Positions 27,597 to 55,100 are shown, counted from the stretch's first letter. The stretch: 64,000 nt of DNA from Gemmatimonadota bacterium (GCA_031372565.1 JANMLN010000124.1:15684-79683); one strand, 5' to 3'. Numbers and translations are program-made. The notes: generated by a model from the letters alone, not told the origin.

Positions 27597-28823
27597 ATGC
27601 CCGACGCGGCCCCGGCGGCGCGTGGCGTCTACAAACCCCGGCGCCCCAAGGCGTCGCCGCTCTTTCGGTTGGTGTCGGACCACCTGCATCGCCTGCAGAC
27701 GGTCTACGACGAGCGCTTCGCGCGCGAGTATGGCCCATGGCGCCCCGTCGTCGCGCAGGTCGCTGGCAAGTTCCTCGCCGGCGGCGTGCTCGAGCACGGG
27801 TTCGCGCGCATCCGCTGCGACGACTGTGCACACGAATACCTGCTCGCGTTCTCCTGCAAGTGTCGCTATTTCTGCCCGAGCTGTCACGCCAAGCGGCTCG
27901 CCATCTGGACGCGGTGGCTCGACACGACGCTCCTCACGCCCGTGCCGCACCGGCAGGTGGTGCTCACCATTCCCAAGCGCCTCCGGGCGTATTGTCTGTA
28001 CCGGCGACGCCTACTCGGCGAGATCGCCCGCGCCGCCGCCCGCACCGTCACCGCCGCCATTCGGACGCTGACCGGCGAGCGCGATCTCGCCGTGGGGATC
28101 GTCGCGTGCCTGCAGACGCACGGCTCCCGGGCGAACTGGCATCCGCACCTGCACCTCCTCGTCACCGACGGCGGCTTCCGGCCAGATGGCACCTTCGTGT
28201 CGTGGCCGGTGCACGATACTGCGCGTTTGACTGAGGCGTTTCGCCGCGCCGTGCTGCGGTTGTTCGTGCGGCTCGAGCTCTTCGATGAAGACCAGGCCGC
28301 GGGCATGCTGACGTGGCCGCATTCCGGGTTCCACGTGCACACCGCCGTGTGGGTCCCGGAGGACGATCGCGCGTTCGCCACCCGCCTCGCGCGCTACTGC
28401 GCCCGGAATCCCGTCGCGCTGGAGCGGCTGACCTACGACCGCGCCGCCAAGGCGGTGACGGACCGGTCGGACAAGTCCGAGGGCCCGACGGCGGGTACCG
28501 AAACCGCCGACCCGCTCGAGTTCCTGGCCCGGGTGCTGGTGCATATCCCCGACAAGGGCCACGTCACCACGCGGTACTATGGCTGGTATGCCAACCGCCC
28601 CCGTGGCATGCGGATCGCCGCGTGCATCACGCAGGCCTCGGTGATCGACCAGCTCCTCACACACCTCCGCACCCGCGCGGCGCACGCGGCCCACACCGGC
28701 GCACGGAGCCCGCCATCGACGCGGACCCCCGCGAGCCGAGGGGCATCACGCGCCTCACGCACGAGAGTGCCGACGCGCCGCTGTCGGCGGCGGTCGTGGA
28801 GGGGCGCGAGCAGTCCCTCGTGA
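27597..28823 (+). mobile_element. IS91/ISCR-type HUH rolling-circle transposase, apparently damaged
   Basis: Zn-binding CDDC...SCKCRYFCPSC, HRQVVLTIP, HUH motif WHPHLH, SGFHVH, RLARY, RYYGWYAN; first Cys replaced (LAGG) and C-terminal segment apparently missing. Confidence 0.9.
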
Positions 28824-31825: not shown

Positions 31826-31966
31826 TTGGACACGACCGCTTCGCACATGGTTGGGAGTGCACGCACGCTTACGTGCTGGCCTTCTCCCGCAAGTGCCGCT
31901 ACGTCTGCCCCAGTTCTCCTGCCCAAGCGCCTCGCGATCTGGACCCAGTGGCTCGACGCCACACGC
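31826..31966 (+). pseudogene. Fragment of a second IS91/ISCR-type transposase (Zn-binding region)
   Basis: Reads CTHAYVLAFSRKCRYVCPS, then after a frameshift KRLAIWTQWLD; homologous to CAHEYLLAFSCKCRYFCPS..KRLAIWTRWLD at about 27825-27925. Confidence 0.85.
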
Positions 31967-33803: not shown

Positions 33804-33872
33804 ATGGACGACGCGCAAGGGGCCACCCCGCGCGGGGTGGCCCGGTCGCGTGTGAGAGTGGAGGGGGAGCCA

Positions 33873-33904
33873 ATACTCCAGCCACCCCGATCGCATTTCC
33901 TATC
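33873..33904 (+). mobile_element. Orphan oriIS-like end of an IS91/ISCR-type element
   Basis: ATACTCCAGCCACCCCGATCGCATTTCCTATC; TTCCTAT core as in IS91/ISCR origins; 24/32 identical to the reconstructed site at 39219-39247+40666-40668. Confidence 0.6.
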
Positions 33905-34023
33905 GGGACCACCCGCGCGAGCGCCCCGCCCGGAGTGTCCGGAACCGCGCACACATCCGCTCTGGCCTTTACTCGGGCACAGAGACAGAATTGCGGATTC
34001 GACGCTCCCTCACTCCCGCTCAC

Positions 34024-36985: not shown

Positions 36986-37206
36986 CTGCGGAGTTGCACG
37001 AGTCCGCGTGAGGAAGGCAAGCGCGTAACGTGCGCAGTCAGGCGCGTGCGAACAGCGACCGTTCGTCGCCGCCCTCCGGGCGCACGGCCTACTCATCCTT
37101 TCAGGCGATGGTAGTCCGAAGGAGGGATGTGCAGCATGTGATGTGGGCGCCGAGGCCACGGCCGAGGGACTTTGGGCAACGCGCCAGACATCGAGGATCC
37201 ATTCAC

Positions 37207-38040
37207 ATGTCTCGCATGCGCACTTTCGGCGCCGTCGCACGGGCCGCCGTCGCGACGCTGGTGCTCTCGACCGTCGCAGCCGCCCAAGGGCCGCTCCGGA
37301 GCGCCAACCCGTTTGCCGTGCTCGGTGGCTCAACCGTGACCAATACGGGCCCCACCACGATCACCGGCAATCTCGGCCTGTATCCGGGAACGGCCATCAC
37401 AGGTCTCGGCAGCATCACGCTGAACGGCACCGTGCACGCCACCGATGGCGTGGCCGCGCTCGCGCAGCAGGACGCGCGTACCGCGTACAACTACTTCCGC
37501 AGCCTGCCGCTCACGACCGACCTCTCGGGTATCGATCTGGGTGGTCGTACGTTGACGCCGGGGGTCTACGCGTTCTCGTCCTCGGCGCAACTGACCGGCA
37601 ACCTGGTGCTCGACTTCCTCGGCAACCCGAATGGACAGTTCATCTTCCAGATCGGCAGCGCGTTCACGTCCGCGAGCGGATCGTCGGTGTCGGTGCTCAA
37701 CGGCGGCGCGGGCAGCGGCGTGTACTGGCAGGTTGGCAGTTCGGCCACGCTCGGCAGCACGACGAGCTTCATGGGCAACCTGATTGCCGACCAGAGCATC
37801 ACGATGACGACCGGGGCCAAGATCGGCTGCGGGCGCGCGTTCGCGCTCGTTGGTGCCGTCACACTCGACAACAACGTGATTGCCGCGAGTTGCCGTGCTG
37901 GCGGCGGCCCCGATGACTTCGGCAGCGGTGGCTTCAGTGGCGGGACCCAGCCGGCCGTGGTGCCGGAGCCCGCGACGTTCGTGTTGCTCGGAAGCGGGCT
38001 TCTCGGCATGCTGGCGTTCGGGTGTCGTCGCTCTCGCTGA
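37207..38040 (+). CDS. Ice-binding protein (DUF3494) with PEP-CTERM sorting domain
   Basis: [52 protein letters not shown]-terminal [16 protein letters not shown]...RRSR. Confidence 0.9.
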
Positions 38041-38045
38041 CGCGC

Positions 38046-39182
38046 ATGACGGATCCCGCATCTCGCCGCCACGTGCTCGCCGCGATCGGGCTCGTGGCCG
38101 CGGGGCTCGCGATGCGTCGGACCCGCACGTGGGGAACGGTGCAGGCATCCGCACCGCTGCGTGGAGGGGCCCCCGCGCTCCTGAGGCTCGTGTCGGCCCC
38201 ACTCGCGGCACCGTCATCGCTCCTTGCGATCGTCACCGCCGCCACGCGCGCGGCCTCCAGCCACAATACCCAACCGTGGACGGTGAGCCTTTCGGACAGC
38301 ATGGTGTCGGTGAAGCCCGACTTCACCCGCCGATGTCCGCAGGTCGACCCGGATGATCACCATCTGTACGCGAGCCTTGGATGCCTGGCGGAGAACATCC
38401 ACATTGCCGCGCGGGCGGCCGGGTGGCCCGGCGACGTCGGCGTGACGCTGCCGCATGTCGCGGACGGGCGTGCACGACTCGTGCTGGCCGACGGCCCACG
38501 CGATCTGGCGCCATTCGCGGCGGCCATGGCGGCGCGTCAGTGTACGCGCAGCGGGTTCGATGGACGGTCCGTGCCGGTGCCGCATCTCAAGCTGCTGTCC
38601 GCGGCCGGCACCGGCGATGGCGTCAGCATGCTGCTGTTCACGGACCCGGAGCATCGAAGCGGGACCGCCGAGTGGGTGGCACAGGGCAACACCGCGCAGA
38701 TCGACGACGCCGCGTGGCGCGAGGAACTCGTGCGGTGGCTCCGATTCAGCGAGGGCGAGGCGCGAGAACACGGGGACGGACTCTGGTCTGCGGCGACCGG
38801 CAATCCGGGACTCTGGCGCGCCATCGGCAAGGTCGCCCTGACGCTCACCTACTCCTCGCGATCGCAGAACAAGAAGGAGGTGCCGTGGATCACGGGCTCG
38901 TCCGGCATCGCCGTGTTCGTCTCGGAGCGCAACGACGCGCCGCACTGGATCGAGGCGGGGCGCTGCTACCAGCGATTCGCCCTGCAGGCGACGCTGCTCG
39001 GCATCAGGCACGCCTTCATCAACCAGGCGGTGGAAGTGGCGGCGTTGCGACCGCAGTTCGCGACCTGGTTGGGAATCGGAGATCGCCGTCCGGATCTCGT
39101 GGTGCGGTTCGGGTACGCGGAGGCGATGCCCATGTCGTTCCGGCGGCCGATGGCCGCCGTGCTGGCGCGCGACGACGGGTGA
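38046..39182 (+). CDS. Acg-family FMN-binding nitroreductase-like protein with Tat-like leader
   Basis: SRRHVL leader; AASSHNTQPW, VDPDDHH, RQCTR, AGR.YQRFAL.AT, RFGY. Confidence 0.85.
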   Translation: MTDPASRRHVLAAIGLVAAGLAMRRTRTWGTVQASAPLRGGAPALLRLVSAPLAAPSSLLAIVTAATRAASSHNTQPWTVSLSDSMVSVKPDFTRRCPQVDPDDHHLYASLGCLAENIHIAARAAGWPGDVGVTLPHVADGRARLVLADGPRDLAPFAAAMAARQCTRSGFDGRSVPVPHLKLLSAAGTGDGVSMLLFTDPEHRSGTAEWVAQGNTAQIDDAAWREELVRWLRFSEGEAREHGDGLWSAATGNPGLWRAIGKVALTLTYSSRSQNKKEVPWITGSSGIAVFVSERNDAPHWIEAGRCYQRFALQATLLGIRHAFINQAVEVAALRPQFATWLGIGDRRPDLVVRFGYAEAMPMSFRRPMAAVLARDDG

Positions 39183-39263
39183 GCGGCGTCGGACTCGTCC
39201 GGTGGGCGATCGCGTCGCATACGCAACCGACGCGGATCGAAATTCCTTCTGTGAAGCGCCGGC

Positions 39264-39520
39264 CCGCGACAAGCCCCCACATGCTGTTGCGAGGCTTGGC
39301 GTGGCAGCTTCTTCAATTGTCCGAGCGATCCTCGAGGTGCTGCTCAGCCTTGTGTTCGCGCGCTCGGATGGGACGCGATGGTCCCGGCGCATGCGGGTGG
39401 TCCGAAGAAGCGGGGTGGCGCCAACTCTCCCACGACGTCGATGGTCCGTGGTGCGTCAAGGAATCTCACGCGCGCTGTCGCTCCCGATTCAGTCATCTCG
39501 ATTCGCGCCCGGTGCGCGGC
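39264..39520 (-). ncRNA. Putative bridge/seek RNA region of the IS1111-type element
   Basis: About 257-bp non-coding region downstream of tnp with segments matching target flanks (39459-39467, 39482-39487) and the element end (39421-39426). Confidence 0.55.
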
Positions 39521-39521
39521 G

Positions 39522-40550
39522 CTACGCCGCGCGGGGTGGGGCCTCCGTCGGACGCGGGCGGAGCTGCTGCGCGTCGAACGACGCACCGTCCCGCCAGATC
39601 GCGTAGAGGATGCCCGCCAGTCGGCGCGCGAGGGCGACCGCGTCGCTGCGCGATCTGCACGGTCCACGCACGCAGCGCCGCGGTCTCGGTGGACGTCGAG
39701 CGCAGGATCGTCCACGCCGCTTCCACCAGCAGCCAGCGCATGCGCCCGTTGCCCGCTTTCGTGAGGTGCCCCAGCTGCCGCTTCGCGCGCGATCTGCGCT
39801 CGCTCGGAATCAGGCCGAGGTACGCCTCGAGTTCGTGGGCCGAGCGAAACCGCGTGATGTCATCCACCGTGGCCACGAACGCGCTGGCCGTCAGGGGCCC
39901 CACGCCCGGCGCGGTCGTGAGGCGCAGCGCGATGGGCTCCTCCTGCACGAAGGCCGCGATGCGCGCATCGGCCACGCCGATCTGCGCGTTGAGCGGGGTG
40001 AACACCGCGAACAGTGGCGACAGTTCGGTGGTCAACGTGGGTGAGAGCTCCAACTCGGCAATCCGCGTCGGCGCCCAGGCACTCGCACTCGTTGGCACCC
40101 GCAACCCGTCGCGTCGTACGAGCGCCTTCGCGAGCGCGACATACCGCGTGCGCGTGCGCACGAGCGCATCGCGCACTGCGGGTTCGGCCCGCACATGCCG
40201 TCGCGCCTCGGAGAGCCGATAGGCCGGACGCCAGGCGCCCGTTTCGCACGCGTCCATCAGTGTGCGCGCATCGCGCTTATCGGTCTTGGTGCGGCGCGAG
40301 CGATTGGCGTACATCGGCGCATAGTTCGGGTCTGCCACGATCACCTCGTGGCCGAGCGAATCGAGGTGGCGCGCCACCCACTCGCTCTCCCTGCTCGCTT
40401 CGAGCAGGATGCGAGCCGGCGCCCGCCCGCGCAGCACCGCGGTGAACCGCTCCCGGCTGGTGGCGATCCGGCGATCGGTGACGGTCCCGTCGGCTGCCTT
40501 CATCGACAGCTGACTCTTGCGCTTGTGCAGATCCAGGCCTATGACTTCAC
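39522..40550 (-). pseudogene. IS110 DEDD recombinase/transposase, frameshifted
   Basis: IGLDLHK, LLEAS, KTDKRDA, PGVGP, YLGLIPS, TKAGN; GTG start out of frame; C-terminal VALARRLAGILYAIWRD in a shifted frame. Confidence 0.9.
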
Positions 40551-40765
40551 GGTGGCTGGCCTCCCGGTATGCGCCCCGGCGGCAGACGGTGCGCGGGTGG
40601 ATCGTGGTGGGGCAGAGGGTAGCTCCGCGTTACCGTGGAGGTCCAGCCGCCGCTTCATACCAACTATCCCGACTTCGACCCGAGCTCCGAGGTATCCTGT
40701 GCGCCGTTCGCAGACTCCCCCCCCCCGCGCTGAATACACACAGGCGAGCATTCGCTGCGCGCAGC

Positions 40766-42472
40766 TTGCGAGCGCGCATCATTTGGTGGTTTCGCCGAGG
40801 CGTGGTATGCGGTAGCGTCGCCCTAGCCGTGGCGTGTGAGCGACCGACCGAGGGCCTACAGACCAACGCAACGCCACCTCGCGAGGTGCGTTCCGCCGCA
40901 CTGGCGACACGACCACCTCTTGCGGACACGATTGAGGAAGTACGAGTCGCTCTCGCCGCAGGTCTCCTGCCCGAGCTGCCATCGGACGCGGCGCTCATGC
41001 GCGCGGTGGAGGAGTCGAAGGGTATTGTTTTGATCGGGCTGAAGGAGCCCTTGCAGCCGAGTACGCGCGCTTCCGGACGGTTTCAGGCCATGGCACGCGC
41101 GCGTGTCGAAGACCTTCAGCGCCTGCTCGCGGATGAGGGCGTCGCGGTGCTGCAGTCGATGCGATACACATCCACCGTTGTCGCGCGTATCGACGCGATT
41201 CAGGCACCTCGTCTGCGACGCCTGCCCATCGTCAATTTCCTTGAGGTGCCGGCCAGCGGCGCTCCGGGACAGGCTGCGCAGATCGTCGACACCGCGCAGC
41301 GCATCTACGGGTTGCCAGGCGTATGGACCATGGGCGGCGGCGCGGGAGGCAGCGCCACGATCACAATCCTGGATTCCGGCTTGGACTCGTTGCACTACTA
41401 TCTGCCGACGGGAGATGGACCGGCGAGTCTGAGCGTGTGCGGCTACGTGTCCTCGGCGCGGTCCTGCTACAACCCCGCCGACGTCCATGGCAGCGCCGTG
41501 GCGGGCGTCGTGGCGGGCCGAGACAACTGCTGCGGGATTGTGGGCGTGGCATACGGACCGTTGACGGTGAACTTTGCGCGAATCACCGACAGCGTGCAGT
41601 ACTGGGGCGAAGCGGCGTTCATTGCGGCTCTTGACTGGGCGACATCGCTCCAAGTGCCCCGTCACATCGTCAACATGAGCTTCCAGTTCTGCACGATGGG
41701 CTCCGCTTCGTGGAACGCGATAGGTCGGGCCAGTCAGGCGGGCATTCTGCTCGTCTCGATCGCGGGGAACACGAACTGGCTCTGTTCCGGGTTTCCGCCC
41801 GGGGCGAACGGTGTGACGTTCCCGGGACGCTATCCCGAGGTGCTTGCCGTTGCTGGCACGAGTGTGGCAGACGGCTTTGCGCTTCCGGAGGGGTCGTGCT
41901 CGGGGTCGCGACAGGGTCCCGAGGTCGCGCTCTCCGCGCCGTTCAAGGTGCAGACGATGGGCTTCGCAGGCTCAAGGGCGGTGATGTGCGGTACTTCGTT
42001 CTCGGCGCCAGCGGTATCCGGCGCGGCTGCGCTTGTCTGGACGCAGAATCCATCGTGGAACGCAACCGCGGTGCGAAGCCGACTGTTCAGTTCCGCACTG
42101 GACCTCGGGCCGACTGGGAGGGATCAGCAGTTTGGCTTTGGGCGCCTGTCGGCTGTCAACGCGCTTCAGTCTCCCCTGCAGGTGTCCCTATCGGGTCCCG
42201 GTCTCCTCGATGTACCTGGGACGTACACCTGGTCGGCGACCGCGTCGGGCTCGCAGGCTCCGTATTCGATCGTCTGGTCCTACCGGAGTTCAGCCACGGG
42301 CGCCTGGGTCGCTGTCGGCAGCGGCTCGACGCACTCGCGGAACGTCACCGCCTCTTCTCCAAGCTTTCAGCTGCTTGCTCAGGTCACGACCCCCGCTTGG
42401 CAGGGCAGCGCCTCGGCAACGACGGCCGTCACCGTATCCATGGGGGGCGGATGCAATCCGTACTGCGAGTAG
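40766..42472 (+). CDS. S8 subtilisin-like serine protease, probable lipoprotein
   Basis: Triad ILDSG, HGSAVAG, GTSFSAP; oxyanion AGN; lipobox-like LAVAC; start uncertain (TTG 40766 or GTG 40802). Confidence 0.85.
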   Translation: MRARIIWWFRRGVVCGSVALAVACERPTEGLQTNATPPREVRSAALATRPPLADTIEEVRVALAAGLLPELPSDAALMRAVEESKGIVLIGLKEPLQPSTRASGRFQAMARARVEDLQRLLADEGVAVLQSMRYTSTVVARIDAIQAPRLRRLPIVNFLEVPASGAPGQAAQIVDTAQRIYGLPGVWTMGGGAGGSATITILDSGLDSLHYYLPTGDGPASLSVCGYVSSARSCYNPADVHGSAVAGVVAGRDNCCGIVGVAYGPLTVNFARITDSVQYWGEAAFIAALDWATSLQVPRHIVNMSFQFCTMGSASWNAIGRASQAGILLVSIAGNTNWLCSGFPPGANGVTFPGRYPEVLAVAGTSVADGFALPEGSCSGSRQGPEVALSAPFKVQTMGFAGSRAVMCGTSFSAPAVSGAAALVWTQNPSWNATAVRSRLFSSALDLGPTGRDQQFGFGRLSAVNALQSPLQVSLSGPGLLDVPGTYTWSATASGSQAPYSIVWSYRSSATGAWVAVGSGSTHSRNVTASSPSFQLLAQVTTPAWQGSASATTAVTVSMGGGCNPYCE

Positions 42473-43994: not shown

Positions 43995-46900
43995 TCAGTC
44001 CCCCGCCACCGGCTGCAACGCTGGCACGCGATGCTCCCCGGTCGCCTGCGCCACCTTCATCCCGAACCGACGCGCCAGTCCGGCACGCATCTCGTCCATG
44101 ATCTCGTAGAAGGTCGGGATCACGATCAGCGTCAGCACGGTCGACGTGATCGTGCCGCCGATGACCGCGATCCCTAGCGGCGCGCGGAACTGCGAGCCTT
44201 CGCCCGAGCCGAGCGCGACCGGGATCATGCCCGCGATCAGTGCGAACGTGGTCATGAGAATGGGACGCAAGCGGATCGCGCCCGCTTCGATCAACGCCTC
44301 GCGCAGCGGCAGTCCCTGCTTCTCGCGCGCCCACTTGGCAAAGTCCACCAGCAGGATCGCGTTCTTGGCCACGATGCCGGCCAGCAGGATGACGCCGATC
44401 ATCGACATGATGTTGATCGTCGCCCCCGTCACCATGAGGGCCAGCATCACGCCGATGAGCGAGAGCGGCAGCGAAATCAGGATCGCCAGCGGGTCGAGGA
44501 ACGATCCGAACTGCACCACCAGGATGAAGTACATGAGCATGACGGCCACGCCAAGCGCCGACAGGATGCTCGTGAACACTTCCGCCTGCTGCTTCGCTTC
44601 GCCACCCTGCGAAATGCGCACCGACGCCGGCTTCTGGAGCTTGGCCATCCGCTGGTTGATGTCCACCAGCACGTTGGTCAGCGCCTTGCCTGCCGTGTTG
44701 GCCTGCACGATCACGACCTTCTCGCGATCGAGATGGCTGATCACGGCGGGTCCGAGCGTCTGCTTCACGCTGGCGATCTGGCCGAGCGGCAGCGTGGTGG
44801 GCGCGCCACCAGGCGCACCGATCACGAGCGGCAACTGTTCGAGATCGGTCCCGCGGCGGCGCGACTCGGGGTCGAGGCGCACGCGCACCTCGCGCGTCTC
44901 GCCGCTCGGGTCCACCCAATCGCCCGTCTTGATGCCGGCAAAGGCCGGCCGCAGCGACTGCGCCACGGCGCCCACCGACACGCCGAGCGATCCGGCGAGC
45001 CCGCGGTTGATCTGCACGTCCAGTTCGGGCTTCTGCCCCTTGCTGCTCAACCCGGCGTCCACGGCACCGGGAGTCTCCTTCACGGCCTGCAAGACCTGCT
45101 GCGCATAGCTCTGCAGATCGGCCAGGTTGTCGCCGCGGAGTTCGAGCTGGATCTGCTTGCGGCCACCGCCAAAGTCGGTGGCGAACACGGCCACGGTCGC
45201 GCCGCCAACCTGCTTCACTTCCTCGCGCAGTTGGCCCGCGAGCTGGATGACCGACAGCGTGCGCTCGCCCTTGGGCGTCGTCTTCACGAAGACGTTCGCC
45301 ATGTCGACGGCACCGCTCGCCCCGCCGATCGTAGTGTAGGTGTAGATGACCTCCGGGTGCGCACGCGCGATGCGGGCCGCTTCTTCGGCCTTGAGGCGCG
45401 TGTACGACATGGTCGAGCCCGGCGGCGTCTCGACCGCGATGTTGAACTCGGACCGGTCATCCTCGGGCACGAAGCCGGCGCCCACCAGGCCGGTGGCCGG
45501 AATGGCGATCGCGATCACGAACGACCCGACCGCCAGCGCCACCATCGCGAGCCGGTGATCGAGCGCCCACGCGATCACGAGTCGGTACCGCTCCGCCAAC
45601 CGGTTGAACCAGTTGTTGAACTGGTCCAGTCGCTTCGTGATCCACCGCTTCTTCTCCTCGGGCACGTGCGGGTCGGGCCAGTAGGCCGACAGCATCGGAT
45701 CGAGCGAGAACGACACGAAGAGCGACACCAGCACCGAACAGGCGATCGTGAGCGCGAACGGCTTGAACCACTGCCCACCCACACCGCTGATGAACGCGAT
45801 GGGCACGAACACCGCCACGATCGAGAAGGTGGTGGCCGCAACGGCGAGCCCGATTTCGTCGGTCCCCTCGCGGGCCGCGGTGTAGTGGTCTTTCCCCATC
45901 TCCACATGGCGCACGATGTTCTCGCGCACCACGATCGCGTCGTCGATCAGGATGCCGATCGCGAGCGAAAGCCCCAACAGCGACATGGTGTTGAGCGTGA
46001 ACCCGAAGAGCCACACCGCCACGAAGCTCGCCAGCACCGACACCGGCAGTGCCAGGCCGGTGATGACTGTCGAACGCCACGAATTGAGGAAGATGAACAC
46101 CACCAGCACCGTCAGCAGCGCCCCTTCGAGCAGCGTCTCCTGCACGTTGCGCACCGACGCGTCCACGCGCTTGCCGGCATCGCGGACGATGTCGACCTTC
46201 ACGCCGGCCGGGAGCCGCTTCTTGATCTCGTCGATCCGCTTGTTGAGCCGCATCGACAGATCGGTCGTGCTGGCTTCCTTCCCCTTCTTGATGTCGATGC
46301 CCACCGCCTCGACGCCGTTGTAGAGCGCCAGCGTGCGCGGCTCCTCGGTCCCATCGCGCACCGTGGCCAGTTGGCCCAGGCGAATCGGAATCCCGTTGCG
46401 CGTCGTGACCACGAGGTTCGCGAACTCCTGCGGGTCGAGCAGGCGTCCCTGCAGGCGGATCGAACGCTCCTCGAGCGGTCCCTCGATGCGCCCGACCGGT
46501 GCCGCCAGATTCTGCGTCTGCAACGCCTGCACCACCTGGGAGACGCCCACACCGTTGGCCAGCAGCGCCTGCGGGTGAATCTCCACCGTCAGCTCGCGCT
46601 TGATCGAGCCGACGACGGCCACATCGGCCACTCCCGCCAGCGAGCGGAACTCGCGCGTGATCCCCGGGTCGGCGAGTCGCGTCAGCTGCGCCGGCGTCAG
46701 CGACGTCGAACTCAGCGTGAGCGACAGCACCGGACGGTCGGTGTCGGAGATCTTCTTGAGGATCGGCTCCTCCATCTCCTGCGGGAGCTCCTGCCGCTTG
46801 AGCGAGATGGCGTCGCGGATGTCCTGCTGCGCCTCCTGGATCGGCTTCTGGAAGAGGAAGAAGGTCGTGATCTGCGCGAATCCGTCGCGCGCTTCCCCCT

Positions 46901-47141
46901 GGACGTAGTCGACCCCCTGGATGCTCTGGATCGCTTCCTCGATCGGCTCGAGGATCTCGCGTTCCACCTGATCGGGGGAGGCGCCAGGATAGATGATCGT
47001 CGTCGCCACGATCGGCGGCTGGACCTCCGGGAACTCGTCGGTCTTCAACCGCAACAGGGCGAACAGGCCGAACACCACCAGCCCCAACATCGAGACCACG
47101 GTGATGAGCGGTCGCTTGATCGCGAAATCCGAGATGAACAT
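43995..47141 (-). CDS. RND efflux transporter permease (AcrB/AcrD/AcrF family)
   Basis: MFISDFAIKRP, GILIDDAIVVRENI, KNAILLVDF, RLRPILMTT. Confidence 0.96.
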   Translation of the reverse strand: MFISDFAIKRPLITVVSMLGLVVFGLFALLRLKTDEFPEVQPPIVATTIIYPGASPDQVEREILEPIEEAIQSIQGVDYVQGEARDGFAQITTFFLFQKPIQEAQQDIRDAISLKRQELPQEMEEPILKKISDTDRPVLSLTLSSTSLTPAQLTRLADPGITREFRSLAGVADVAVVGSIKRELTVEIHPQALLANGVGVSQVVQALQTQNLAAPVGRIEGPLEERSIRLQGRLLDPQEFANLVVTTRNGIPIRLGQLATVRDGTEEPRTLALYNGVEAVGIDIKKGKEASTTDLSMRLNKRIDEIKKRLPAGVKVDIVRDAGKRVDASVRNVQETLLEGALLTVLVVFIFLNSWRSTVITGLALPVSVLASFVAVWLFGFTLNTMSLLGLSLAIGILIDDAIVVRENIVRHVEMGKDHYTAAREGTDEIGLAVAATTFSIVAVFVPIAFISGVGGQWFKPFALTIACSVLVSLFVSFSLDPMLSAYWPDPHVPEEKKRWITKRLDQFNNWFNRLAERYRLVIAWALDHRLAMVALAVGSFVIAIAIPATGLVGAGFVPEDDRSEFNIAVETPPGSTMSYTRLKAEEAARIARAHPEVIYTYTTIGGASGAVDMANVFVKTTPKGERTLSVIQLAGQLREEVKQVGGATVAVFATDFGGGRKQIQLELRGDNLADLQSYAQQVLQAVKETPGAVDAGLSSKGQKPELDVQINRGLAGSLGVSVGAVAQSLRPAFAGIKTGDWVDPSGETREVRVRLDPESRRRGTDLEQLPLVIGAPGGAPTTLPLGQIASVKQTLGPAVISHLDREKVVIVQANTAGKALTNVLVDINQRMAKLQKPASVRISQGGEAKQQAEVFTSILSALGVAVMLMYFILVVQFGSFLDPLAILISLPLSLIGVMLALMVTGATINIMSMIGVILLAGIVAKNAILLVDFAKWAREKQGLPLREALIEAGAIRLRPILMTTFALIAGMIPVALGSGEGSQFRAPLGIAVIGGTITSTVLTLIVIPTFYEIMDEMRAGLARRFGMKVAQATGEHRVPALQPVAGD

Positions 47142-47154
47142 GACCCGTGCCCCC

Positions 47155-48312
47155 TTAGTTGCGCTTGGTCGGTGCGGCCTTGTCGCCCGTTTCGGCGACC
47201 TTGACCGCGGATCCGACGCTGATGCCCTGCGCGGCGCCGACGAGCAGCGTGTCCCCCACGCTCACGCCGGCGCGCACTTCGTACCGCTCCGTCACCTTGT
47301 CGTGCAGCCCGAGCTCCACCGTGACCTGCTCGACCTTGCCCCCCTTCACGCGCATCACCAGCGGCGCAACGCCGCGCTGATCGATCGCGTTGGCCGGCAC
47401 GAGCAGCCCGGCGCGCGACGCGCTCGCGATGCGCCCTTCCGCGAACAGCCCACCCACGAGGGGCGCGCTCCCCGCCTTGGCCGTGTTGGGAATGGCCGCA
47501 TACACCCGCACCTGCCGCGTCACGGGATCGGCGGACGGGTTCACGCGGGTGATCCGCCCGACGAAGCGCCGACCACCGTAACCGTTGACGACGAAGCGAA
47601 CCACCGCGCCGATGCGCACCTGCCCGAGCTGCTCCGCCGGCACCGCCGCCTCGAGCCGCATGCTCGTCGGATCGATGATCGTGAACATCGCCGCACCGGG
47701 TGCGACCACGTCGCCCGCCGAGACGACCCGCTCGCTCACCACGCCGGCAAAGGGGGCGACCAGCTTCGCGCGACTCAGATTCTCCTCGTTGGTCGCGTAC
47801 CGCGACTTGGCGTCATCGAGCGCCGCCTTCGCGCCGAGGTCACCCCGCGTGGCGCTCTCCTCATCGCGCTCGGAAATCGCCCCTTCCTTGAGCAGCCGCT
47901 TGGCACGCTCGAGTTCGCGCGCGGCCTGATCGGCCGAGTTCTGCGCGTTGGTGAGCTGCGCCTTGGCGGCGAGGTAGGCGTCCTTGAAGACGCGATCATC
48001 CACTTGCGCCAGCGGCGCGCCGGCCGCCACGTATTCGCCTTGCTCGACGAAGGTGCGGAGCACCGAGCCACCCACCTGCGCGCGGATCTTCGCTTCACGC
48101 TCGGGAATGATCGTCCCCTGCACGGTGGGGCCGCTCTCGATCGAATCCATGGCGACCACGGCAATGGCCTCGGGACCAACGACGATGCCGTCGGTGTTCT
48201 TGGCTGCGGCGGCGGCGGGGCCCTTGCTGCAGGCCGCAGCAAGCAGGAGCGCCGACGAGGCGAGGAGGGCGCTGGCGAGCGGCCGTGTACGACGTGTACG
48301 AATGGTCTTCAT
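47155..48312 (-). CDS. RND periplasmic adaptor (membrane fusion lipoprotein)
   Basis: Lipobox LAAAC, lipoyl halves, APFAGVV, DPVTR. Confidence 0.93.
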   Translation of the reverse strand: MKTIRTRRTRPLASALLASSALLLAAACSKGPAAAAAKNTDGIVVGPEAIAVVAMDSIESGPTVQGTIIPEREAKIRAQVGGSVLRTFVEQGEYVAAGAPLAQVDDRVFKDAYLAAKAQLTNAQNSADQAARELERAKRLLKEGAISERDEESATRGDLGAKAALDDAKSRYATNEENLSRAKLVAPFAGVVSERVVSAGDVVAPGAAMFTIIDPTSMRLEAAVPAEQLGQVRIGAVVRFVVNGYGGRRFVGRITRVNPSADPVTRQVRVYAAIPNTAKAGSAPLVGGLFAEGRIASASRAGLLVPANAIDQRGVAPLVMRVKGGKVEQVTVELGLHDKVTERYEVRAGVSVGDTLLVGAAQGISVGSAVKVAETGDKAAPTKRN

Positions 48313-49952
48313 GGAGTCGCGCCTCCAGTGGCGCCCGGCTGGCCCGCCGTCGCCGCACCCGCGGCGCCTGGCTGGCCTTGTGTGAATGAAGGGGCTCCCG
48401 AGGACGCACCGCCGCCCTGGGAGATCGAACCGGTGTTCACCGTGCCGGCCCCGATGGGCAGGTCCGGCAGGAGTGCGACTCGCAGCTGCGCGACCTGCAG
48501 GTTGCGCGCCGCGTTCGCGCGGTTGGCCAGCGATTGCTGCTGCAGGATGCGCGAATCATTGAGTTCGATCTGCGTCGAGATCCCTTCGCGATAGCGCACC
48601 TCGGCAATGCGGTACGCCCGCGCCGCCTGCTCCGACGTGCCCGCGCTCGCGCGCCACGCCGCCTCGGCCTGTTGCAGCTGCGTGAACGCCTGTCGCGCAT
48701 CGAGCGCCGCGCCCTGCTTGGCCTGGTCGAGGCGCGCGGTGGCTTCGGCCAGGTTGGCCCGCGCCACCATCTCGTCGCCCGTGATCTTCCCACCCGTGAA
48801 GAGCGGGATCGACGCCGAGAGGGAGACCGTCCAGTTGGTCAGGAACGAGTCGAACTTCGGAAGCTGAAAGTCCTGCTGGCCAAAGGCGACCTTGGCGTAG
48901 TTCGAGGAGAGCACCACGTTCGGCAGCCGCTGCGAGCGCGCGATGGTGAACTGCTGCTCCTGCAACTGCAGCGCTTCGGTCGCCTGACGGACCAGCACCC
49001 GCTGCGCCGCCGTCGTGTCGACCGCCGTGGCGCCCAGCAACTTGAGCAGGGGCTGCGCGGCGGTCGCGTCTTCCTCACCTGAAGGCAGCACGAGATCGAG
49101 CGAGTCGGCGGGGCCGAGGTTGAGCACCTGCTTGAGTCGGAGACGCGCCAATTCACGCTCGGCGCGGCGCTGGATGAGGATCGGGCGCTGGTTGTCGCGC
49201 GTGACCTGCGCGCGCAACAGCTCGAACTCGGCCGTCGTCCCCACGTTCTTGGCCAGCTGCACCTGCCGCGCCACGTTCTCGGTCTGCACGAACGACGATT
49301 CCGCGATCACCAACAACCGTTCGGCGAGCACGGCGTCGAGAAAGGCTTGCGACACGTTGAGTGCGAGCTGGGCCCGCTGGCTCCGCAGTTCGAGGTCCGC
49401 GGTGCGCAGGCCGGCGGCAGCGAGGCGGTTCTGCGCCTGGACGCGTCCGCCCGTGTAGAGGTTGAGCGATGCCGCGAAGCCGAGCTGATACTGGTTGGCC
49501 GCACCGAAACCGGCACGGCTGAAGTCGATGCCGCCACCGCCGCGACAGTTGGTGCTGTTGGCCAGCGCGTTCTCGAGCGAGTCGAGGCGTGACGTAGTGC
49601 CGGACCCGGTGACGGGAGTGAAGACGCGGCACAGCGCGCGCGTGTCTGGCGGGCCGGCCAGCGCACTGAACTGCGTGGCGAGCGTCTTGGTGTAGAGCAG
49701 CTGCGCATTGACCTGCGGCAGGTACTGGCTACGCGCCTGCCACTCTTGTCCGTGCGCGCGATCGACGCCAGCGCGCGCGATCTGCACGGCCTGGTTGCGC
49801 TGCTCGGCGAGCTGATAGGCCGCCGAGAGCGTGAGGGAGCGCGGCGCGGCGGCGGCAGGCGACGTCGACTGCTGCGCGGTGACGGGATGGGCTGCTGCCA
49901 CGACGGTGGCGGCGAGGGCGAGTGATCGGTACCACATGGAAGTCGGAGGCAT
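48309..49952 (-). CDS. TolC family outer-membrane efflux protein
   Basis: Signal peptide; SQYLP, LYTGG, SIPLFTGG, RYREG.ST..E repeats. Confidence 0.92.
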   Translation of the reverse strand: MPPTSMWYRSLALAATVVAAAHPVTAQQSTSPAAAAPRSLTLSAAYQLAEQRNQAVQIARAGVDRAHGQEWQARSQYLPQVNAQLLYTKTLATQFSALAGPPDTRALCRVFTPVTGSGTTSRLDSLENALANSTNCRGGGGIDFSRAGFGAANQYQLGFAASLNLYTGGRVQAQNRLAAAGLRTADLELRSQRAQLALNVSQAFLDAVLAERLLVIAESSFVQTENVARQVQLAKNVGTTAEFELLRAQVTRDNQRPILIQRRAERELARLRLKQVLNLGPADSLDLVLPSGEEDATAAQPLLKLLGATAVDTTAAQRVLVRQATEALQLQEQQFTIARSQRLPNVVLSSNYAKVAFGQQDFQLPKFDSFLTNWTVSLSASIPLFTGGKITGDEMVARANLAEATARLDQAKQGAALDARQAFTQLQQAEAAWRASAGTSEQAARAYRIAEVRYREGISTQIELNDSRILQQQSLANRANAARNLQVAQLRVALLPDLPIGAGTVNTGSISQGGGASSGAPSFTQGQPGAAGAATAGQPGATGGATP

Positions 49953-50572
49953 CAGGAAGCGGACATCGCGCGCACGCCGGCGGCGCGCTTGGGCGCGCGG
50001 GCCGGTGCGGAGATACCAAGCGCACGGGCGATGACGCGCACGTACTGCTCGGCCGCGGAACTGGCGGGGGGATAGATGGAGGGCATCATGTCGCGGCCCA
50101 TGGCGTCGCCGAACAGGGACGACATGAGCATCGTGGCGGCGACGATGAGATCGGCGCCGGGCGCGGCGAGACCGGCGGCCCGCACGCGCGTGAGGTAGTC
50201 GCGGAGCTCGTGGTGGGCCCAGGTCGGCCCTTCACACGCGGCCCCGCTCATCTCGGGTCGTTCTTCCATCTCGCTCATGCACTTGCGGATCATCGAGCGA
50301 TTGCGGCGCATGTGCGCATGGATGGCCGCGGCCCACGCGGTGAGCTCGGCCAAGGGGTCGGCAGGCTGCGCCGGGAGATGCGCGATGTCGTCACGGCCCG
50401 TGCGATCGCGGATCGCGGCATCGATGAGGGCCGCCTTCGACCCGAAGGTGCGAAAGAGGGTGACCTCGTTGACGCCGGCGGCTTCGGCAATGCGCTTGGT
50501 CGTCGCGCCCCGGAACCCATGGGCTCCGTAGACGCGGACCGCGGCTTCGAGAATGCGTGCGCGCAAGGGCAT
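49952..50572 (-). CDS. TetR/AcrR family regulator
   Basis: RILEAA...GFRGATTKRIAEAAGVNEVTLFRTFGSK. Confidence 0.93.
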   Translation of the reverse strand: MPLRARILEAAVRVYGAHGFRGATTKRIAEAAGVNEVTLFRTFGSKAALIDAAIRDRTGRDDIAHLPAQPADPLAELTAWAAAIHAHMRRNRSMIRKCMSEMEERPEMSGAACEGPTWAHHELRDYLTRVRAAGLAAPGADLIVAATMLMSSLFGDAMGRDMMPSIYPPASSAAEQYVRVIARALGISAPARAPKRAAGVRAMSAS

Positions 50573-50608
50573 CCCGTGCAGTGAGGGAAAAGAAGTAATG
50601 AAGTGCCG

Positions 50609-50659
50609 TGCAAGCAAGTATTTACTTGCATTCGCATCGGAACGCAAGCATGTGCTTGC
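50609..50659. promoter_or_regulatory. Two related palindromes, putative TetR operators
   Basis: TGCAAGCAAGTATTTACTTGCA (50609-50630) and GCAAGCATGTGCTTGC (50644-50659) in the divergent tetR/P450 promoter region. Confidence 0.65.
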
Positions 50660-50722
50660 ACCCAGCCTCACGTACGCGCGTGCGTCCGGCGAAGTTTCCA
50701 CGACCCTTGTCACGGATTTTCC

Positions 50723-52099
50723 ATGGCCACCGCCGTCACGCCGTCGTCGTCGTCGTCTTCGTCGGGCCTCCCGCCGGGCCCTAAACGGCAGTTCCCTGGC
50801 CAGATGCTGCTGCGGCTCCGGAAGGACGGACTGCTGCAGGTCATGAACGAGATGGCGCAGGCGCATGGGGACATCGTGCACTTCACGCTGCCCGGTGAGC
50901 ACATGGCGCTCCTGAGCCATCCCGATGACATCCGGGACATGCTCGTGACGCACCAGAAGCAGTTCAAGAAGGGGCGCGGCCTCGAGCGCACCGAGATGCT
51001 GCTGGGCAAGGGGCTGCTCACCAGTGAGGGGGAGTTCCATCTCAGGCAACGGCGACTCGCCTCGCCGGCCTTTCACCGGCAGCGCATCGGCGGCTACGGC
51101 GAGGTCATGACCGGGTACGCCCACCGCCACGCCGATGGATGGCGCGATGGCGAGATGCGCGACATGAGCGCCGACATGATGCGCCTGACGCTGGCCATCG
51201 CCGGCAAGACGCTGTTCGATGCCGACGTCGAGTCCGAAGCCGCCGAGGTGGGGCAAGCGCTCACGGACGTGTTCGAGGCATGGAGCATCGCGCTGCTCCC
51301 GTTTGGCGAGTTCCTCGTGAAGCTGCCGATTCCGGCGGCGCGCCGCTTTCGAGTGGGCAAGGCGAAGCTGGATGCCATCATCTACGGCATGATTGCCGAC
51401 CGGCGCGCCTCGGGGCGCGACCATGGCGATCTCCTCTCGATGCTGATGGCCGCGGCGGACACCGAAGGGGACGGCACCGGCATGACCGATGAGCAGCTGC
51501 GCGACGAGTGCCTGACGATCTTCCTCGCCGGACACGAGACCACCGCCAACGCGCTCACCTGGACCTGGTACCTGCTCTCGGAGCATCCCGAGATCGAGGC
51601 GCGGCTGCACGAAGAAGTCGACCGCGTGCTCGGCGACCGCCGCGCGACCCATGACGACTTGCCGCAGTTGCCGTTCACGCGCATGGTGCTCGCCGAGTCG
51701 ATGAGACTGTACCCGCCGGCCTACGGGCTGGGCCGACGCGCGCTCGTGCCGTACGACGTGGGCGGCTACCGGCTCCCGGCGCGCACGGTCGTGCTCGCCT
51801 CGCAGTACTACGTGCATCGCGACCCGCGCTGGTGGAGCGAGCCCGAGCGGTTCAATCCCGACCGCTGGCGCGAGGGGAGCGGCGAGCCGCGCCACAAGCA
51901 TGCCTACTTCCCGTTCGGGGCCGGCACGCGCGTGTGCGTCGGCGAACAGTTCGCGTGGATGGAGGGGATCCTGGTGATCGCCGAGCTCGCGCGGCGGTGG
52001 CGGTTCCGGCACGATCCGACGCACCATGTCGGACTCGCACCCGTGATCACGCTCCGCCCATCCCACGGCATGCGCATGCGCTTCGAGCGCCGCCGTTAG
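50723..52099 (+). CDS. Cytochrome P450
   Basis: AGHETT I-helix, ESMR (ExxR), PERF, FPFGAGTRVCVG heme Cys. Confidence 0.96.
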   Translation: MATAVTPSSSSSSSGLPPGPKRQFPGQMLLRLRKDGLLQVMNEMAQAHGDIVHFTLPGEHMALLSHPDDIRDMLVTHQKQFKKGRGLERTEMLLGKGLLTSEGEFHLRQRRLASPAFHRQRIGGYGEVMTGYAHRHADGWRDGEMRDMSADMMRLTLAIAGKTLFDADVESEAAEVGQALTDVFEAWSIALLPFGEFLVKLPIPAARRFRVGKAKLDAIIYGMIADRRASGRDHGDLLSMLMAAADTEGDGTGMTDEQLRDECLTIFLAGHETTANALTWTWYLLSEHPEIEARLHEEVDRVLGDRRATHDDLPQLPFTRMVLAESMRLYPPAYGLGRRALVPYDVGGYRLPARTVVLASQYYVHRDPRWWSEPERFNPDRWREGSGEPRHKHAYFPFGAGTRVCVGEQFAWMEGILVIAELARRWRFRHDPTHHVGLAPVITLRPSHGMRMRFERRR

Positions 52100-52109
52100 C
52101 TTGGGCGCC

Positions 52110-55100
52110 ATGTCCTGGATTCTCTACGCGGTCTTCGTGCTCTCGGGGGCCGCCGGCCTCATCTACGAAACAGTCTGGAGCCGCTACCTCGGACTCTTCG
52201 TCGGGCACAGCGCCTACGCGCACGTCATCGTGCTGGTGATGTTCCTGGGCGGCATGTCGCTCGGTGCGTACACCATCGGCGAGCGGTCGTCGCGGCTGGC
52301 GCGTCCGTTGCGCTGGTACGTCGGCATCGAGATCGTGGTCGGCGTGATCGGGATCGTCTTCCACGACGTGTTCGTCGCGGTCACCGCCATCGCCTACGAC
52401 GCGATCTTCCCCGCGCTGGGCGCCGGTCTCCTGCTCACGATCATCAAGTGGGGCCTGGCCGCGCTGCTCATCCTGCCACAGTCCGTGCTCCTCGGGATGA
52501 CCTTCCCGTTGATGAGCGCGGGAGTCCTGCGGACCCTGCGCGCACCGGCGAGTGCGTCGGGGCGCGTGCTGGCGATGCTCTACTTCACGAACTCCATCGG
52601 CGCCGCTGCCGGTGGGCTTCTGGCCGGGTTCTGGCTGGTGGAACTCGCGGGGTTGCCGGGGACGCTCTACACGGCAGCCGCGCTCAACCTGATCGTGGCC
52701 GCCGTCGTGGTGGGGGTGGAGCAGTTCGGCCAGCGACAGGCCGTGGTCGACACGACCCCCGAAGCGATCGGCGAGCCGACGGCGGCGACCGCGCAGCGCA
52801 CCCGCCTCGAGCGCACCCTGCTCTGGGTGGCCGGTGGAACCGCGGTCGCATCGTTCGTCTACGAGATCGCCTGGATTCGCATGCTGTCGCTCGTGCTGGG
52901 CGCGGCGACGCATTCGTTCGAACTCATGCTCTCGGCCTTCATTACCGGGCTCGCGGCGGGCTCGCTCTGGGCGCGCAAGCGGGCCGACACGTTCGCCGAC
53001 CCGCTCCGTGCCCTCGGCATCGTGCAGGTGGTCATGGGGCTGCTGGCCGTGGCGACGCTGCCCTTGTATCGCGCCAGCTTCCACTGGCAGGCGCAACTGC
53101 TGCTGGCGCTCGACTACAACGAGGCGGCGTACACGATCTTCAGCGTCGCCAAGTACGCCATCTCGCTCATGGTCATGCTGCCGGCGACCTTCTGCGCCGG
53201 CGTCACGCTCCCGCTCATCACGCGCACCTTGCTCGCGGGCGGTGGTGGCGAGCGCGCCATCGGCCGCGTGTACGCGGTCAACACGCTGGGGTCGATCGTC
53301 GGGGCCGCCGCGGCCGCGCTGCTCCTGCTGCCGCTGCTGGGCGTGAAGGGGTTGCTCATCGCGGGCGCGTGTCTCGACATCGTCGTGGGGCTCTGGCTGC
53401 TGGCGGGTGCGGCCGACGCGTGGCGTCCGGTGCGTGCGTGGGCCGGGTGGGCGGCCGTTGCATCGGCGGCGATCATCGCCGTGTCGCTGGCCACCCCGCT
53501 CAACCCGCTCCTGCTCACCAGCGGCGTGTACCGCTATGCCTCCGCGGAAGTCGCGCCAACCTGGCGTTCGATCTTCTATCGGGATGGACGCACGGCCACG
53601 GTGAGCGCCCGCATCGACACGCTGTCGGGCGAGGTGTCGCTGGCCACCAATGGCAAGCCCGATGCCTCGCTCTCGCGGCAGTGGATGCAGCTGGCGGGTC
53701 CGCCGGCGGGCGCCATCACCGGTGATCAGTCGTCGCAGTTCCTCCTGCCGCTCATCACGCTCGCCTACAACCCCAAGGCCAGGCACGCGGCGGCGATCGG
53801 CCAGGGATCGGGGATGTCGTCGCACGTGTTGCTCGGCTCGCCCGTGATCGAGGAGCTGACGACCATCGAGATCGAGCCGCAGATGATCGAAGGGTCGCGC
53901 GTGTTCATGCCGGCCAATCGGCGCGTGTTCGAGGACAAGCGATCGCACTTCCGCATCGACGATGCGCGCTCCGTGTTCGCGTCGGGACACGTCAAGTTCG
54001 ACCTCATCCTCTCGGAGCCCTCGAATCCGTGGGTGAGCGGCGTGGCCGGCTTGTTCACGGACGAGTTCTACCAGCGCGCCAAGTCGGCGCTTGCGCCCGG
54101 CGGCGTCTTCGGGCAGTGGTTGCACCTGTACGAGACGAACGATGTGCTGGTGCTCTCGGTCCTTGCGGCCGTGCACCGCAACTTTCCCACGTACACGCTG
54201 CACCTCGTGTCGCCCTCCGACATGCTGATCGTCGCCACGGCCGACCCCGTGATGCCGAAGGCGGAGTGGTCGATCGTGACACTGCCCATGATCGAGGAGG
54301 AGATGCGGAAGGTCATTCCGCTGACCCCCGATGCGCTCGCGGCCACCTGGCTCGCCGATCGCGATGCGCTGGCCCCGCTGCTCGAGCGGTGGAAGGCGGT
54401 GAACTCGGACTTCTTCCCGTACCTCGATCTCGGCACCGAGCGCGCGCGCTTCCTGCGCGGTGGCGCGGCCGGGTTCTATGGACTCGCGACCGACCGCTTC
54501 TCGATCCTGCATGCGCTGCGCAGCCGCGTGAGCGCGCCCAACTTCGAGTTGCATGCGTCGAACGACATCGGGCGGGTGCAGCAACTGGCCAGCGGCGCGC
54601 GGTTGCGCTCTGCCATCGTCGGGCAGCTGGACCCCCGCGAGCTGAACGCCGACCGCACCACGTCGGCCAACCTGTTCCGGTACCGCCAGCTCGCCCTGCT
54701 GGCGAGTACCGGTACCGCGCCGGGTGACTGGCGCGCCTGGCTGGCGCAGGTGCAGGATGTTGAAGACGTGCTCGATGGCGGCAACGCCGGCGTGATCGAC
54801 AGCGCGTACTTCGCGATGCTCGAAGGGTACCTGCAGCGCGTGAAGGCGCCCGATGGTCCGCGCGTCGCGGTCGCGTACATGAAGGCGTTGAGCCGCTGGG
54901 ACTGGCCGCGCGCTGCGGCGATGTCGGATTCGTTGCTGCTGTTCGAGCGCCGCCGCTCTCCATGGATGGGGGCGGAGATCTTGCGTGCCGGCGGCGTGGT
55001 CGCGCATCTGCAGACGAGCGATCCCGCCGGTGCCCGCCGGTTGTTCGACTTCCTCACGCCAGGGCTGCGCATGCCGCGCAACGATGTACGCACGCTGCTG

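Follow-up and report, generated by a model that had tools for sequence, protein, structure and literature searches.

A decayed IS1111-group insertion sequence in a Gemmatimonadota genome and the probable RNA-guided targeting of IS91-family origin ends by its lineage

The insertion sequence and its non-coding region

The stretch of DNA analysed here comprises 64,000 nucleotides (nt) from a Gemmatimonadota bacterium (GCA_031372565.1 JANMLN010000124.1:15684-79683) and is referred to as the window. At positions 39248 to 40665 it contains a decayed insertion sequence (IS) of the IS1111 group, part of the IS110 family, which interrupts a short motif resembling oriIS, the origin end of IS91-family rolling-circle transposons. 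The lineage to which this copy belongs is very probably RNA-guided to the IS91-family oriIS ends of Gemmatimonadota. The features of the element are the following:

39248..40665, minus strand: IS1111-group (IS110-family) insertion sequence, decayed; 1418 nt if the CT/AG core is counted once
39522..40551, minus strand: transposase pseudogene, recognised from its translation, the list of open reading frames (ORFs), an alignment with 34 relatives, Pfam and NCBIfam
39252..39263, no strand assigned: sub-terminal inverted repeat (IR), transposase-distal (right) arm; 12 nt, 92% complementary
40646..40657, no strand assigned: sub-terminal IR, transposase-proximal (left) arm; 12 nt, 92% complementary
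39248..39521, minus strand: non-coding region 3' of the transposase gene (tnp), predicted to give rise to a seekRNA / bridge RNA; 274 nt, conserved across 22 aligned copies

The pseudogene product retains both an N-terminal DEDD (RuvC-like) domain (PF01548, DEDD_Tnp_IS110, E 4.6e-7) and a C-terminal Transposase_20 domain (PF02371, E 1.6e-21). It scores 177 bits with the NCBIfam model NF033542, 'IS110 family RNA-guided transposase' (cut-off 140), and the intact relative P0002 scores 247 bits. The window copy is dead, as it has lost its start codon and is frameshifted. The codon that provides the initiator methionine in the relatives (40549-40551) encodes arginine in the window (REVIGLDL instead of MEIIGLDL), and the first in-frame ATG is located at 40503. 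Furthermore, a short out-of-frame deletion near 39650 places the conserved C-terminus (...VALARRLAGILYA...) in the frame of ORF 39522-39671. The transposases of the 34 aligned relatives have a length of about 348 amino acids (aa). A protein search of a plasmid collection for annotated cases of IS110 beside IS91 yielded no match to the IS110 transposase above 36% identity.

IS1111 elements possess sub-terminal IRs of 11-13 bp, asymmetric extensions of around 7 and 3 bp and a non-coding region downstream of tnp; in their seekRNA, the complement of the top strand precedes the complement of the bottom strand, and each of them matches one flank (PMC11187229; this and all other papers are cited for the parts of their text that were available). 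The window element shares these features: it has sub-terminal IRs, a 3' non-coding region, the same guide order and a shared 2-nt core without target duplication. Its 12-nt IR arms are located 4 and 8 nt from the IS ends, and the distances of 7 and 3 bp given in the preliminary description are obtained if one more imperfect pair is counted. The non-coding DNA 3' of the tnp stop codon spans 274 nt, compared to about 110 nt before the ancestral start codon. CT is indeed found at both junctions (39246-47 and 40664-65), while uninterrupted sites have a single CT, and no target duplication is seen. The assignment to the IS1111 type, which had been made from the sequence before, is thus borne out by the DEDD and Transposase_20 domains, the sub-terminal IRs, the long 3' non-coding region and the order of the guides.

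Recurrence of the target among related copies

Excision of 39248-40665 rebuilds the site into which the element has been inserted. Its two parts are:

39194..39247, plus strand: inner part of a split IS91-type oriIS end, orphan, ending in the CT core; found by blastn to the IS91 end of the related locus L041
40666..40670, plus strand: outer 4-5 nt of the split IS91 end (ATCC or ATCCC); conservation among loci stops here

The excision joins ...GGATCGAAATTCCT (last base 39247; also written ...GATCGAAATTCCT) to ATCCCG (from 40666), and a second reading of the junction agreed with the earlier statement of this sequence. The rebuilt 32-mer (39219-39247 and 40666-40668) had been reported to match an uninterrupted motif at 33873-33904 in 24 of 32 positions. 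This identity was confirmed; the runner-up place in the window reaches 19/32. Because the DNA of the window has a G+C content of about 68%, such a match is only moderately unusual within the window, where 4 out of 300 random 32-mers also reach 24/32 elsewhere. That the match of the motif is better than chance rests on the related loci and not on the window. The 16-mer core is found uninterrupted at one place in the window only (33889-33904). The inner part of the split end, which sits directly after ORF 38022-39182, aligns with the L041 IS91 end over 54 nt (78% identity, E 5e-6, blastn), and a local alignment of the window flank beyond the 13-nt target scores 22, compared to a maximum of 13 for shuffled sequences. 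The target in the window was, or later became, an orphan oriIS remnant of around 54 nt.

The related copies stem from a search of one genome per species, in which an alignment of 35 transposase relatives served as query and which yielded 79 loci; the window IS was then mapped onto these loci. It aligns over its full length (1-1418) with copies in L001-L004, L006, L008, L009, L018, L033 and L062 (76-85% identity). The set of close copies comprises 26 members, the window copy among them, whose identity to the window IS is 76% or more. They were drawn from more than 20 different genomes, and the relatives of the window copy are all from Gemmatimonadota. L042 was added for the count of right junctions (15 + 1 = 16), and four matches of the end pattern at other places in L003, L006, L014 and L077 were regarded as stray and excluded before counting. 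All 16 right junctions of close copies abut AGGAAWTTCRATC in the orientation of the transposase, with no mismatch in seven copies, one in five, two in three and three in a single copy. The left flanks of the 24 copies that show at least 5 nt were compared with GGGAT: twelve have no mismatch, ten have one, L002 has two and L055 has three. Additional partial copies outside this count have none (L077), one (L014) or two (L067).

In the orientation of IS91, the empty site reads GATTGAAATTCCT/ATCC(C), that is ...GATYGAAWTTC-CT-ATCC(C), with the slash marking the junction. In silico excision of the homologues, which had been proposed as a check, therefore returns a recurrent target and supports insertion into the oriIS of IS91/ISCR elements. 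An uninterrupted copy of the target is present at L033:1653. A search of 547 kb with an 18-mer and up to four mismatches yielded three matches, of which only L033:1653 is convincing, and shuffled patterns gave 0-12 matches. The motif is not an abundant repeat, because this search returned so few matches.

More distant relatives with 65-72% nt identity occupy another site, the left arm of an imperfect palindromic repeat of around 100 nt (gcCTAACGcc.cAAGCT/GCgggCG ... GTCAGCTTcaaCG..GTTAGgc). Such copies are found at L010, L013, L016, L017, L019-L023, L025, L027, L038, L040, L044, L045 and L054. The repeat resembles repetitive extragenic palindromic (REP) sequences or miniature inverted-repeat transposable elements (MITEs), and the guides of these relatives are altered to fit the palindrome. 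Relatives from Rokubacteria (L049:3904-7180; L048, L050, L053; around 61% aa identity) are located at ...TTATGTCGACT/A..., which is matched by ATGTCGAC in their non-coding region. In one of these four loci, L049, an antiparallel IS91-family transposase sequence (40% aa identity, tblastn) is found 339 nt from the right end. The L049-type IS of Rokubacteria may represent a second origin-targeting lineage.

Guide segments in the predicted RNA

For the alignment of 22 sequences of the 3' non-coding region, RNAalifold predicts 48 base pairs, 12 of which are accompanied by compensatory changes. A conserved stem of the predicted fold closes an internal loop, and two putative guides are located on opposite sides of this loop:

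39458..39466, minus strand: right-target guide, AGATTCCTT in the window copy and AAATTCCTT in most relatives; complementary to the top-strand flank AGGAATTT
39421..39431, minus strand: left-target guide, GGGAGAGTTGG in the window copy and GGGATAGTTGG in relatives; of the same sense as GGGAT + AG + the first four IS bases

The right guide is a segment of 7-9 nt on the 5' side of the loop, which reads AAATTCCTT in the close copies, where the flank is AGGAATTT. Changed right guides occur together with changed flanks: guide and flank read GCAGCTT/AAGCTGC in the distant copies, GCAGGTT/AACCTGC in L072, GAACCCC/GGGGTTC in L011 and L012, and GCAGCAT/ATGCTGC in L027. The left guide on the 3' side of the loop corresponds to the left flank, the core and the first bases of the IS, GGGAT-AG-TTGG in close copies, and is changed to CGCCT-AG in L010, CGCAT-AG in L011 and L012, CGCTT-AG in L047 and GTTTC-AG in L030. 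The complement of the top strand comes first, followed by the segment that matches the top strand.

The left guide agrees with its own flank at 116 of 140 positions in 28 copies (2000 permutations: mean 73, maximum 93), and the right guide at 259 of 324 positions in 36 copies (permutations: mean 175, maximum 222). These counts leave out a spurious row for L013 and all rows whose flanks are incomplete. When each of the 16 guide classes is represented by a single copy, the score is 181, compared to a mean of 112 and a maximum of 157 in permutations, and this score was reached by 0 of 5000 permutations. Although the relatedness of the copies inflates such tests, the co-variation of guides and flanks across classes and the many compensatory changes are clear. 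No bridge RNA or seekRNA family of Rfam was found in the whole window (gathering threshold) or in 39200-40700 (E-value search); the sole match is a chance one to mir-128 (E 0.013).

Identification of the target as an IS91 origin end

Beyond GGGAT, the left flanks of the copies are unrelated, whereas the right flanks are alike for tens of bases, and the site therefore resembles the end of a larger element. The flank genes were annotated by tblastn and by Pfam on chosen ORFs. In five of the 16 flanks (L002, L003, L009, L018 and L041), genes with Y2_Tnp / Zn_Tnp_IS91 domains follow the junction on its right side and run antiparallel to the IS110 transposase gene, with IS91 transposase sequence at a distance of around 20-332 nt from the junction. 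The L018 transposase is intact (453 aa), reaches 185 bits with the NCBIfam model NF033538 (cut-off 125), and its stop codon is located around 220 nt from the junction; that of L041 is frameshifted, that of L003 is 3'-truncated, and L009 and L002 retain fragments. IS91 transposase sequence is likewise found beside the truncated IS copies of L015 and L065/L066. Furthermore, when flank positions 14-80 are compared, L004 and L033 group with L009 and L018, and the window, L008 and L042 group with L041. Taken together, ten of the 16 right flanks are demonstrably derived from IS91.

Conservation among the loci ends 4-5 nt past the crossover, which identifies the target as an IS91 terminus. The four bases after ATCC in the L018-type ends are TTGA, CTGA, GTCC, GTGA and CTGA, with T at position 2 in all five cases, and IS91 target tetranucleotides retain T at position 2 (PMC13181058). 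In other end types, ATCCC is followed by G..., and the boundary of the element is ambiguous there. The oriIS of ISCR27 is GCGGTTGAACTTCCTATACC and is located 236 bp after the stop codon (PMC8894482); the right end of ISCR1 is ...CTTCCTATACCC (PMC13023784), with the oriIS region at 232 bp. For an IS91 element of Sphingobium, a 17-bp oriIS was described 167 bp after the coding sequence (PMC5737581). The local consensus ...GATTGAAATTCCTATCC(C) shares the TTCCTAT core with these ends, is identical to the ISCR27 oriIS in 16 of 20 positions and resembles the published ISCR1 end; the rebuilt window site matches the ISCR27 oriIS in 14 of 20 positions (both counts were made by hand in this analysis). 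A location 3' of a Y2 HUH transposase gene, around 170-240 bp after its stop codon, is found at L018, and tnp is also adjacent in L041, L009, L003 and L002.

Several related loci hold shortened elements. L033:1653-1990, L002:3639-4090 and L003:5329-6300 are internal-deletion derivatives of IS91, in which the terminal 20-100 nt or so of the origin end are joined to sequence of the terIS side. Their structure resembles that of miniature IS91 elements that may be mobilised in trans, and orphan or miniature IS91 ends seem to be common, because related loci hold such derivatives that keep the end. L018:7100-7370 and L033:5430-5700 have common DNA past the terIS side of IS91 and different DNA past the origin end, which suggests a rearrangement at the IS110/oriIS boundary.

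The window itself contains three further IS91-derived pieces:

33869..33906, plus strand: uninterrupted orphan oriIS-like end, flanked by a minus-strand PadR gene and a plus-strand Ser/Thr kinase gene
27597..28823, plus strand: IS91-family transposase ORF, open, 408 aa; Pfam Y2_Tnp and Zn_Tnp_IS91
31854..31962, plus strand: short fragment of an IS91-family transposase gene, found by blastn/tblastn

The end at 33869-33906 aligns with the L041 end over 37 nt (81%, E 0.03, blastn). The product of 27597-28823 scores 159.5 bits with NF033538, above the cut-off of 125, and is 65% identical to the L018 transposase (tblastn). The fragment at 31854-31962 is 76% identical to L041 at the nt level over 109 nt and covers aa 91-113 of the L018 transposase. 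Together with 39194-39247, these pieces all have plus orientation and lie within 12 kb; they may be the remains of more than one element or belong to a single large unit that carries passenger genes.

Weight of the evidence and alternative explanations

Not all observations are in line with a lineage that is guided to oriIS ends. Both motif copies in the window, the split one at 39.2 kb and the uninterrupted one at 33.9 kb, are orphans with no adjacent IS91 transposase gene, so that neither forms an end located 3' of such a gene, and no oriIS motif is present in the 108 nt between 27597-28823, the one IS91 transposase gene of the window, and the next gene. The expectation of the preliminary description that intact local IS91 copies end in the motif thus fails in the window, and its support comes from other genomes. 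Among these, six of the 16 right flanks (L001, L006, L062, L064, L068 and L078) have nothing IS91-like past a motif of around 13-20 nt, some of them being short, the left flank of L055 is poor (3/5 mismatches), and the adjacent IS91 transposase gene is intact in only one of five loci. The DNA of the oriIS ends, in which sub-terminal palindromes were sought, folds no better than shuffled sequences (z -1.18 to +0.45). Moreover, the window element is itself dead, with a single mismatch between either guide and the copy's own target. Finally, the copies are related, so that the permutation tests overstate their independence, which the test with one representative per guide class corrects in part.

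The recurrence of the IS beside IS91 ends could also arise if IS91 elements that already carried the IS110 element were moved as a unit by the IS91 machinery, with few true insertions into oriIS. The same IS91 end type is found together with the same IS110 sub-clade beside four different outer flanks (L004, L009, L018 and L033), and L018 and L033 share DNA past the terIS side and differ past the oriIS side, both of which fit such a joint movement. However, the IS copies of these four loci are 95-96% identical, whereas the neighbouring IS91 DNA is 82-93% identical and the outer flanks are different in every case, and since the IS is more alike than the DNA next to it, the copies seem to be independent and younger insertions into diverged IS91 copies. 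These values are also weak evidence against the earlier suggestion that the IS hitchhikes on rolling-circle transposon origins. In addition, the IS91 ends that harbour the IS belong to three or more unrelated types, the IS91 transposases of L018 and L041 sharing just 60% identity, and the sequence of the target is spelled out by the guides. The terminal region required by IS91, namely its last 82 bp and the tetranucleotide (PMC13181058), is moreover cut in two by the insertion. Joint movement is thus an unlikely explanation for the pattern.

It is more doubtful still that the motif is a host intergenic element, for instance a REP-like palindrome or a regulatory site, which IS91 merely shares or neighbours and which is targeted as by ISPa11 and ISPpu9. 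Such an element would agree with the intergenic position of both orphan copies in the window upstream of plus-strand genes, with the 6-7-bp stem and 10-nt loop into which the motif folds in both uninterrupted sites, and with the palindromic repeat of around 100 nt targeted by the more distant relatives. The motif, however, does not have the abundance of REP sequences: TTCCTAT occurs 13 times in 547 kb if both strands are counted, with two to three uninterrupted oriIS-like occurrences. In five loci it is found 3' of IS91 transposase genes at a fixed distance; it also matches printed ISCR oriIS sequences and is conserved on one side, as the end of an element would be. The position of both window copies upstream of genes on the plus strand also prompted the idea of a promoter or other regulatory site, which was rejected in view of the IS91 adjacency in other genomes. 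The possibility that the boundaries were mis-set, the conserved AGGAAWTTCRATC being a part of the IS itself that leaves no specific target, deserves hardly any credence. Its 13 nt do invariably adjoin the right end, but GGGAT-AG-GAAT...ATC is also found uninterrupted where no IS is present (window, 33.9 kb; L033:1653), and relatives with the same IS ends have quite different flanks, which fit their changed guides.

Proposed mechanism and consequences for IS91

If the lineage is guided to oriIS ends, an RNA from the 3' non-coding region would direct the DEDD recombinase. Its two guides would spell the last 20 nt or so of Gemmatimonadota IS91-family rolling-circle transposons, the oriIS end, and these elements would end in ...GAAATTCCTATCC. 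The IS would have recombined at the CT of ...GATYGAAATTC-CT-ATCC(C), 4-5 nt inside the IS91 terminus, thereby placing the IS110 transposase antiparallel to the IS91 transposase. By analogy with other IS1111 members, for which this has been demonstrated experimentally (PMC11187229), the RNA would be produced and direct recombination.

The insertion probably blocks the initiation of IS91 rolling-circle transposition. The terminal nick site and the adjacent tetranucleotide are parted from the sub-terminal sequences by 1.4 kb, and for IS91 transposition the terminal 82 bp at the right end together with the adjacent tetranucleotide are sufficient (PMC13181058). Loss of origin function appears likely, because the insertion leaves just 4-5 nt of the end beside the tetranucleotide. 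The low number of intact adjacent IS91 transposase genes (1/5) fits such a loss, as a proportion without a control set. It is tempting to go further and to see in the lineage a dedicated hyperparasite, whose guide RNA finds folded single-stranded oriIS during rolling-circle transposition and which integrates there, reversibly silences the IS91 copy and can ride IS91 circles or IS91-rich replicons into new genomes, and the Rokubacteria L049 lineage may do the same; this scenario is speculative and rather improbable. If both lineages did so, IS1111 elements would have turned to origins repeatedly and long ago, and the targeting would be more than a single retargeting event.

Relation to known systems

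The available parts of the literature describe IS1111 elements that target transposon ends, the terminal inverted repeats (TIRs). Like the element described here, they have IRs in sub-terminal position and non-coding DNA 3' of tnp, and their insertion is specific for site and orientation, with the junction located a few bases within a functional end of a different transposon. By analogy, an insertion inside a functional transposon end should cripple that end. The Gemmatimonadota lineage differs in its victim, a rolling-circle (HUH Y2) IS91 element, in its site, which is a single-strand origin and not a transposase-binding TIR, and in its hosts. A seekRNA has been demonstrated for the IS1111 members ISKpn4, ISPst6, ISPa11 and ISEc11 (Siddiquee et al. 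2024, PMC11187229); ISKpn4 and ISPst6 target attC, and ISPa11 targets REP. The guide order, the location of the guides in an RNA 3' of tnp and the natural retargeting by replacement of guide segments are shared with these four elements, with 16 guide classes within one clade here; the targets may likewise be foldable. In contrast to these four elements, the target class is a different one, and the RNA of the present lineage is predicted from sequence. Paired guides around a 2-nt CT core and the absence of a target duplication are also seen in the bridge recombinase IS621 of the IS110 group. However, elements of the IS110 group have the RNA 5' of tnp and lack sub-terminal IRs (PMC11187229), whereas here the RNA would be located 3' of tnp and IRs are present.

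On the side of the target, the ends resemble the published oriIS of ISCR27 and ISCR1 in their TTCCTAT core, in their distance from the stop codon (around 220 nt in L018, 236 bp in ISCR27 and 232 bp in ISCR1) and in being the last conserved sequence. Unlike ISCR elements, the local transposases fall under the IS91 model and not under the model of ISCR clade Ia (155 bits, cut-off 925). They also differ from classical IS91 with CTTG/GTTC in that the flanking tetranucleotides are TTGA, CTGA, GTCC and GTGA, and their role as origins is a predicted one. No description of an IS110 or IS1111 element that targets oriIS was found in open-access full text, and the term 'IS91' is absent from the text of PMC11187229. 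The mechanism is that of an ordinary IS1111 member and not new; only the target class appears to be new.

The IS91/ISCR single-strand origin would thus extend the short list of IS1111 targets, which includes attC, REP and the inverted repeats of the Tn21 family. The 16 guide classes of one clade, which range from a REP-like palindrome to oriIS, constitute a natural retargeting series that is useful for deriving the programming rules of seekRNAs and bridge RNAs. If the insertion silences oriIS, the pair of elements would further provide a simple and assayable model of an interaction between transposons, and the clinical relatives of the IS91 family, the ISCR elements, are thought to mobilise resistance genes.

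Neighbouring genes in the window

Upstream of the split site, ORF 37030-38040 encodes a protein with an ice-binding-like domain and a PEP-CTERM sorting signal. On the other side, a run of ten C at 40717-40726, which is possibly prone to slippage, lies between the IS and a subtilase (Peptidase_S8) ORF listed at 40517-42472. An operon for a resistance-nodulation-division (RND) efflux system lies within 43995-52111 on the minus strand and comprises an AcrB-type pump (43995-47141), a HlyD-type adaptor (47155-48312) and an outer-membrane factor (48309-49952). The ORF that follows the outer-membrane factor, 49952-52111, is unusually long (719 aa) and contains a TetR_N domain at residues 520-566.

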